Virus record (IMG/VR): IMGVR_UViG_2857251867_000002 | Direction: 5' to 3' (one strand) | Length of the DNA: 23,957 nucleotides | Source of the DNA: an uncultured virus (IMG/VR IMGVR_UViG_2857251867_000002) | Lineage: Duplodnaviria > Heunggongvirae > Uroviricota > Caudoviricetes | Part shown: positions 21,227 to 21,367 of the stretch, one piece after another | How the letters are laid out: each line of letters begins with the position of its first letter | Numbering within the stretch: position 1 is the stretch's first letter | The notes under the pieces: generated by a model | Told to the model about the DNA's origin: nothing | What the model saw: only the letters and a program-made list of their open reading frames with translations | The model's database searches: none | Position numbers and translations under genes: made by a program

Positions 21227-21331
21227 AAAAAAATGCCGATACGCTAGGAGTCATATCGGCATATAAAATAAACGCAAGAAGCAATGTAAGTCATGTCGTA
21301 CTAATTCGTATCAAACCTGTCAACTTGATAC
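21227..21331 (-). ncRNA. ryhB: Putative RyhB-like Fur-regulated sRNA (copy B); 5' end approximate
   Basis: 5' stem GTATCAAG..TTTGATAC, core ACGACATGACTTACATTGCTTC (recalled E. coli RyhB: ACGACATTGCTCACATTGCTTC), U-rich linker, terminator TGCCGATATG..CGTATCGGCA-T7. Confidence 0.75.
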
Positions 21332-21337
21332 ATATGT

Positions 21338-21367
21338 AATGATAATTATTCTCATTAATATATTCAA
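21338..21367 (-). promoter_or_regulatory. Sigma70 promoter with Fur box (sRNA B)
   Basis: TTGAAT-17 nt-TATCAT overlapped by AATGAGAATAATTATCATT (1 mismatch to the 7-1-7 Fur consensus). Confidence 0.78.

Follow-up and report, generated by a model that had tools for sequence, protein, structure and literature searches.

The DNA examined here (the window; 23,957 nucleotides) forms the last part of an 86-kb provirus record that contains tandem lambdoid prophages. Its minus strand carries, at 21227–21331, a gene for a RyhB-like sRNA of ~105 nt that we designate type A. The gene is real and so far unannotated. It sits in a decayed prophage remnant whose gene order is the end of icd, an integrase fragment, Q, a cold-shock gene, a 132-aa ORF, an enterotoxin-A-like gene, the RNA genes and an endolysin/tail-tube fragment. 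The sRNA is part of a 234-base cassette, two copies of which, 97% identical, are present in the 86-kb record (the second at G000 51558–51791). The upstream part of the cassette (21368–21457), which travels with the sRNA, has two hairpins and is truncated in the window. A long conserved hairpin within it (21400–21457, also truncated; G000 51733–51800) lies upstream of a phrog_2473 gene and a holin gene, moves with the sRNA cassette and is also found in other contexts.

The original prediction placed the RNA between toxin and lysis genes. This holds loosely for position, but the "lysis gene" is a 150-base endolysin fragment (21448–21597, plus strand; partial PF00959 match; 87% identity to G000 54045–54194) fused to a tail-tube fragment, and a duplicate of the tail region begins at 21596. 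The sRNA gene has been retained in this remnant with the endolysin fragment only and no holin. The convergent neighbor, a heat-labile enterotoxin A-like gene (20153–20998, plus strand; PF01375, E = 1e-47), lies outside the sRNA unit. A link between toxin and sRNA did not stand: just 1 of the 54 loci has the enterotoxin as a neighbor and the gene was not seen in any other examined locus, none of the 7-1-7 Fur box matches in the window precedes it, and its predicted pairing with the type A RNA is weak (-8.4), making it an incidental neighbor. The toxin gene and the 132-aa ORF, which looks secreted and has no family match, lie between two 30-base direct terminator repeats (19477–21049), and these repeats suggest that the segment is an inserted cassette, in which the ORF might encode the binding subunit. 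Elsewhere in the window, the right end of the upstream prophage (11918–16968) carries a Cor exclusion gene and genes for a 630-aa Mrr-domain protein and a DUF3644 protein, all possible defense genes.

A sigma-70-type promoter, TTGAAT-17-TATCAT, is present at 21367–21339 on the minus strand and matches 9 of 12 consensus bases. Host ryhB paralogs 3 and 4 share with it the GGGTTGA context of the -35 hexamer (TTGAAT, 21362–21367) and the distance from this hexamer to the Fur box. Its -10 hexamer (TATCAT, 21339–21344) was found by promoter search. The 1.5-kb region holds seven promoter-like sites against 5.8 ± 2.6 expected, which is chance level, and the promoter match alone therefore proves nothing. 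The predicted Fur box that overlaps the -10 element (21340–21354; one mismatch to the 7-1-7 motif) is of a different order, as boxes of this stringency occur twice in the whole window against 0.04 expected. The box was scored with the 7-1-7 motif; the 19-bp Fur consensus had no match within three mismatches. By sequence, type A thus has the Fur box over a sigma-70 promoter that characterizes the RyhB family (RF00057), with both elements lying where they had been predicted.

The RNA itself comprises, in order on the minus strand, a 5′ stem-loop (21308–21331), a RyhB-like core (21278–21299), a U-rich linker (21263–21273) and an intrinsic terminator (21227–21262). The canonical RyhB 22-mer had a single match in the region, at the core, with exactly three mismatches (19/22), as originally claimed, and none of 100 shuffles matched. 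The first ACAUUGCU repeat is broken and reads ACAUGACU, the second is intact, and the CCAG end of the canonical core is also changed. The terminator hairpin (21262–21233) has 11 pairs followed by a T run, with 98.4% of cells paired and one compensatory pair across alleles. Fur box, core and terminator are all far beyond chance, and the region folds with a z of -3.16, a value equaled by none of 200 shuffles. The U-rich linker and strong terminator of the original prediction were both recovered, and the linker is a putative Hfq site, at which Hfq likely binds. The 5′ stem-loop was also found in its place and has 10 pairs in the common allele (90.6% of cells paired, one pair changed on both sides), but in the lowest-energy fold of the window allele the 5′ arm is paired to a portion of the core. 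Two other alleles give a clean 5′ hairpin, and the prediction of this element is hence allele-dependent. RNAalifold applied to the alleles returned no 5′ hairpin, with covariation near zero, and gave the terminator and a short alternative helix only.

The RF00057 model aligned over its full length (1–67) to 21227–21305 with a score of 30.1 bits (E = 0.058 against all Rfam, 5e-5 when searched in its own record), which falls short of the 55-bit gathering cut-off. Type A is consequently RyhB-like in architecture, having the 5′ hairpin, U-rich linker and intrinsic terminator of the family, yet is outside formal RF00057 membership on score and core. That the scores fall below the Rfam cut-off also explains why standard annotation misses these genes.

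A second candidate RNA gene, overlooked in the original prediction, lies 45 bases downstream of the first terminator. Its promoter (TTGACA-16-TATTAT, 21155–21182, minus strand; 11/12 consensus bases) lies under the second predicted Fur box (21156–21170), and the candidate sRNA, type B (~97 nt, 21051–21147, minus strand, with an inferred start), has after its hairpin a CAUUGCUCUCAUUAUCG segment (21120–21103; also given as CAUUGCUCUCAUU) and a terminator (21081–21051) related to that of type A. The same A+B tandem is present, 89% identical, in the genome G161 (locus L490) and in two viral loci (L551 and L585). The terminator pattern was matched 105 times across 97 viral loci. In 75 of these matches the tail is that of a true terminator, and each of the 75 has a Fur box; the remaining 30 have none. 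These 75 matches, six of which are double counts from overlapping loci, comprise 53 of type A, 19 of type C, two of type B and one of type D. All four seed types are built on one terminator scaffold and occupy one slot, which lies between Q and the lysis genes, with the lysis genes upstream and antisense within 2.5 kb in 45 of the 53 type A and 18 of the 19 type C matches, and never in another arrangement. Types C and D (L041:4945–5102, minus strand; L495, L492, and L522) are Fur-boxed and have the same terminator with other seeds. The scaffold is tied to RyhB by type D, which keeps the first RyhB repeat and for which iscS is the predicted rank 1 of 1054 genes. Types B and C had no clear enrichment for iron genes in the target scan described below (for type B, 12 of 60 shuffles were as good), and the type B seed pattern had three matches in viral contigs, all attributable to chance.

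The exact type A core is present in 44 viral contigs, and of 21 Proteus genomes searched by BLAST, 15 have full copies, 18 in total. In a GTDB pattern scan 8 of 22 matches were real, all of them in Proteus; the other 14, all non-Proteus, had neither Fur box nor terminator and were discarded. Among 401 genomes of the family, five had matches to the terminator pattern, three of them Proteus, and none outside Proteus was genuine, the two non-Proteus matches being inside coding sequence and at the level of the reversed control (seven matches). BLAST against 50,697 GenBank phages returned no record covering 80% of the query, with matches that were short or due to chance. As most copies are 95–100% alike, the spread may be recent. 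A full-text literature search turned up no report of a prophage-borne RyhB in Proteus, although supplementary or subscription sRNA catalogs could already list the RNA.

All five Proteus genomes inspected for host ryhB have fur and hfq genes and three to four canonical ryhB genes (RF00057 scores 51.8–82.2, two to four above the cut-off), so that the separate chromosomal ryhB for which a check had been suggested does exist. Most of 151 genomes of the family have one to three matches, compared with the three to four Proteus paralogs (L088–L105, L111–L115), whose sites we take to be near sapA-pspF, near a pirin gene and, for one or two of them, near cspA. In its 3′ part, type A most resembles host paralog 3 (z 3.5–5.1 in 5/5 genomes, ≤2.4 in 41 others). 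In a tree of 52 RyhB-like genes the phage sequences form a clade on a long branch, and the donor is not resolved. Judging from its similarity to paralog 3, type A likely derives from the lineage of that host gene. The description of the RNA as prophage-encoded and RyhB-like is accurate, in that it is prophage-borne and RyhB-related by sequence. A canonical-core ryhB copy also occupies the same late-region slot of another phage (L077). In the late-region slots of two different phages (L077:1997–3023 and L492:727–1540) a membrane gene, presumably RnfA/NqrE-like, stands beside the RyhB-like gene. Separately, several viral contigs (L072–L075, L078–L082, L084, L086, and L087) have a canonical RyhB-2-type gene no more than about 250 bases from an end, which suggests a phage integration site adjoining ryhB.

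Expression was examined in three stranded public RNA-seq runs from one study (X20, X21, and X22), which carry a near-identical allele (L041) and whose sample conditions are coded. In X20 the minus-strand depth was 14–36 across the RNA but 0.19 one bin upstream, with a step at the matching L041 site, and 15 reads with untemplated tails ended at window position 21330 plus 1–2 bases. Since tails at a strong neighboring start likewise overshoot by 1–2 bases, the 5′ end is near 21331, seven bases past the -10 box and at the predicted site, in one of the three samples. Minus-strand depth was 0 in X21 and 3.5–5 without a step in X22, while a neighboring transcript was steady at 850–950 in all three runs. 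Type A thus has a real, switchable transcription start; with the conditions coded, the pattern of presence and absence does not speak to iron control. The stranded runs revealed no 3′ end, as reads run through the terminator, and this read-through lengthens the antisense RNA by at least 250 bases; each of the three samples also has reads from the opposite strand over the site. That the RNA is a discrete 105-nt species is accordingly an expectation from the terminator, in agreement with the predicted length, and short RNAs may be lost in libraries of this type. Two unstranded runs (X23 and X24) and two contig sets (X10 and X14) were uninformative for sRNA transcription. The variable slot adjoining the sRNA also gives rise to a strong unannotated transcript without an Rfam match (L041:2692 downward, minus strand), whose 5′ end is sharp in each of the three stranded runs, with 188–243 tailed reads and a depth of 400–950.

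Sequence diversity among 17 unique GTDB and 36 unique viral alleles (the latter selected on the terminator) is distributed unevenly along the gene. It is highest in the promoter spacers (GTDB/viral 0.16/0.10 and 0.26/0.24) and low in the Fur box (0.03/0.04), the linker (0.011/0.000) and the terminator (0.022/0.002, with the viral value affected by selection on this element), and for the core it is 0.098/0.011. The core is damaged in 4 of the 18 GTDB copies, and the L063 copy has lost its promoter by deletion. Structural pairs are kept in 94.7% of cases with two two-sided changes, a result matched by 24 of 500 shuffles, which amounts to weak covariation.

Potential targets were ranked by duplex energy only, using a 31-base seed region against positions -30 to +15 of 1054 heuristically called genes of P. 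faecis, which cover about 1.2 of the 3.9 Mb of one genome (G002). Eight iron genes were fixed beforehand (sodB, iscS, erpA, acnA, acnB, sdhD, bfr, and ftnA), with names that we assigned from Pfam placement and N-termini; class I fumarase was not found in G002 and the sdhC start was miscalled, and both are therefore outside the set. By predicted pairing, the eight genes had a mean percentile of 0.18 with type A (shuffled seeds 0.327 ± 0.081, 1/60 as good) and 0.17 with host RyhB (0/60 as good). Among the 1054 genes acnB ranked 6 and acnA 28 with type A, and the top 17 included genes that we take to resemble dmsB, pflA, and cydA. Predicted ranks fell for iscS (330 with type A vs. 12–26 with host RyhB), bfr (185 vs. 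2–8) and sodB (343 vs. 70–225), even though the intact second repeat can, by sequence, still pair over 7–8 bases with the sodB and iscS start codons. The changed seed is thus predicted to keep aconitase pairing and to weaken pairing with iscS, bfr, and sodB. With the first repeat broken and these pairings reduced, a plain RyhB regulon is unsupported.

The reading that we favor, and consider probable with considerable room for doubt, is that this self-contained RyhB-related gene, carried by Proteus lambdoid prophages antisense to the late region, encodes a trans regulator that is repressed by Fur, assisted by Hfq and expressed in the lysogen when iron is low, and whose targets coincide in part with, but also depart from, the host RyhB regulon. 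Fur would likely repress the type A promoter when iron is plentiful and leave the box as iron falls, allowing the 105-nt RNA to be made. The RNA may then act with Hfq in trans on host mRNAs, pairing over ribosome-binding sites through the second repeat ACAUUGCUUC and the new CUUCUUGC and GACAUGAC stretches. The overlap with the RyhB regulon would lie at the aconitases and other iron proteins, with iscS, bfr, and erpA largely given up, and on this account type A would tune the host response rather than copy it. Against a trans role is the fact that the host, with its three to four canonical ryhB genes, has no lack of RyhB. It is unlikely, but worth stating, that a captured RyhB gave rise to a family of Fur-wired, swapped-seed RNAs that feed iron status into phage decisions, combining damping of the late operon in cis with silencing of the Q of a rival co-resident prophage in trans. 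The cis component could also stand by itself, with transcription released from Fur lowering lysis gene expression at low iron by collision or duplex cleavage and the seed being secondary. The fixed orientation to the lysis genes, the occurrence of four different seeds in one slot, and the antisense read-through with opposite-strand reads are all consistent with such a brake. It would need no conserved seed, however, and the viral core is nearly invariant (diversity 0.011 among copies found by the terminator alone); moreover, the gene persists in a remnant that lacks a holin, and antisense orientation is usual for genes added to late operons. We regard this explanation, too, as unlikely.

That type A is a weak or decaying passenger, a captured ryhB that at most competes for Hfq or targets and was spread by recombination in the late slot, seems to us a little more doubtful still. 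The damaged cores, the promoterless L063 copy, the high similarity of most copies with its hint of recent spread, and the silence in two of three RNA-seq samples are what a passenger would show, but the spacers are far more variable than the box, linker and terminator, the terminator has a compensatory change, and the iron genes are enriched over shuffled seeds. Control between phages, in which the reshaped seed would silence the Q-like antiterminator of a different co-resident prophage at low iron, we think improbable. The best of the 1054 genes was a phrog_943 Q-like gene (-30.6 kcal/mol vs. about -24 for host RyhB) with 13 contiguous pairs that use the phage-specific CUUCUUGC, and 7 of 21 genomes, every one of which has the sRNA, retain its site. 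Yet a best match of this quality was reached by 3 of 98 shuffled seeds, pairing with the Q of the carrier phage itself amounts to only -14.5, and eight more distant homologs pair at -15 to -22.5; the seven sites are near-identical, hence offer no covariation, and seven of seven given 15 of 21 corresponds to p of about 0.055 (hand calculation) among related genomes. The Q-like match is consequently a lead only, given the shuffles that reach it and the missing covariation. The Cor exclusion protein (phrog_1119) of the adjacent prophage and the precedents of Esr41 and svsR (PMC5286369, PMC12803456) bring to mind repression of iron-uptake outer-membrane receptors used by phages or colicins. Since 0 of the 12 TonB-dependent receptor start regions of G002 (-30 to +15, duplex energy) fell in the top 5%, with a best rank of 82 of 1054, we rejected receptor exclusion as very improbable. 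The same applies, with even greater force, to a dual-function RNA encoding a 16-residue peptide: the core change creates an AUG at 21295 that opens 16 codons with a stop in the terminator loop, but it has no Shine-Dalgarno sequence, and by inspection most in-frame allele changes are non-synonymous or remove the AUG or stop.

If the favored trans reading is correct, temperate phages have plugged a regulator of their own into the main iron sensor of their hosts, a genus of urinary pathogens living under iron restriction. The four seeds on one promoter/terminator scaffold, beside three to four unchanged host copies, constitute a natural experiment on how an sRNA gains targets after duplication.

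Compared with RyhB (RF00057), type A has the same Fur box over a sigma-70 promoter, 5′ hairpin, 19/22 core, U-rich linker, terminator and length of ~100 nt, but differs in score (30.1 vs. 55 bits), in the first ACAUUGCU repeat and CCAG end, and in its terminator. It also differs in being on prophages, antisense to late genes and beside three to four intact host copies. PMC3495738 assigns the RyhB seeds to the conserved core and lists core pairing with iscS and sodB as kept in P. mirabilis. IsrE/RyhB-2 of Salmonella, as far as the available text of PMC2330248 describes it, resembles type A as a horizontally acquired paralog with Fur sites over its promoter, and its host likewise retains a ryhB of its own. 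The two share the presence of acquired DNA beside a core ryhB; the core of type A, however, is not identical to that of RyhB, and whereas IsrE is a conserved core on a genetic island, type A is a changed core in a fixed phage late-region slot with several seed types. Esr41/EcOnc14 of EHEC likewise comes from a mobile element, and it shares targets with RyhB to different effect (bfr, chuA, and cirA), but the portion of PMC5286369 consulted does not describe it as a RyhB homolog or as Fur-regulated, and pairing with TonB receptors is not predicted for type A. The Pas sRNAs and svsR of E. coli lambdoid prophages are not presented as RyhB-derived or Fur-controlled in the accessible parts of their reports (10.64898/2026.05.13.724894, PMC12803456). 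According to those same parts they are, like type A, genus-restricted and multi-copy, some lying near Q, and they are retained in decayed prophages and act on host genes.
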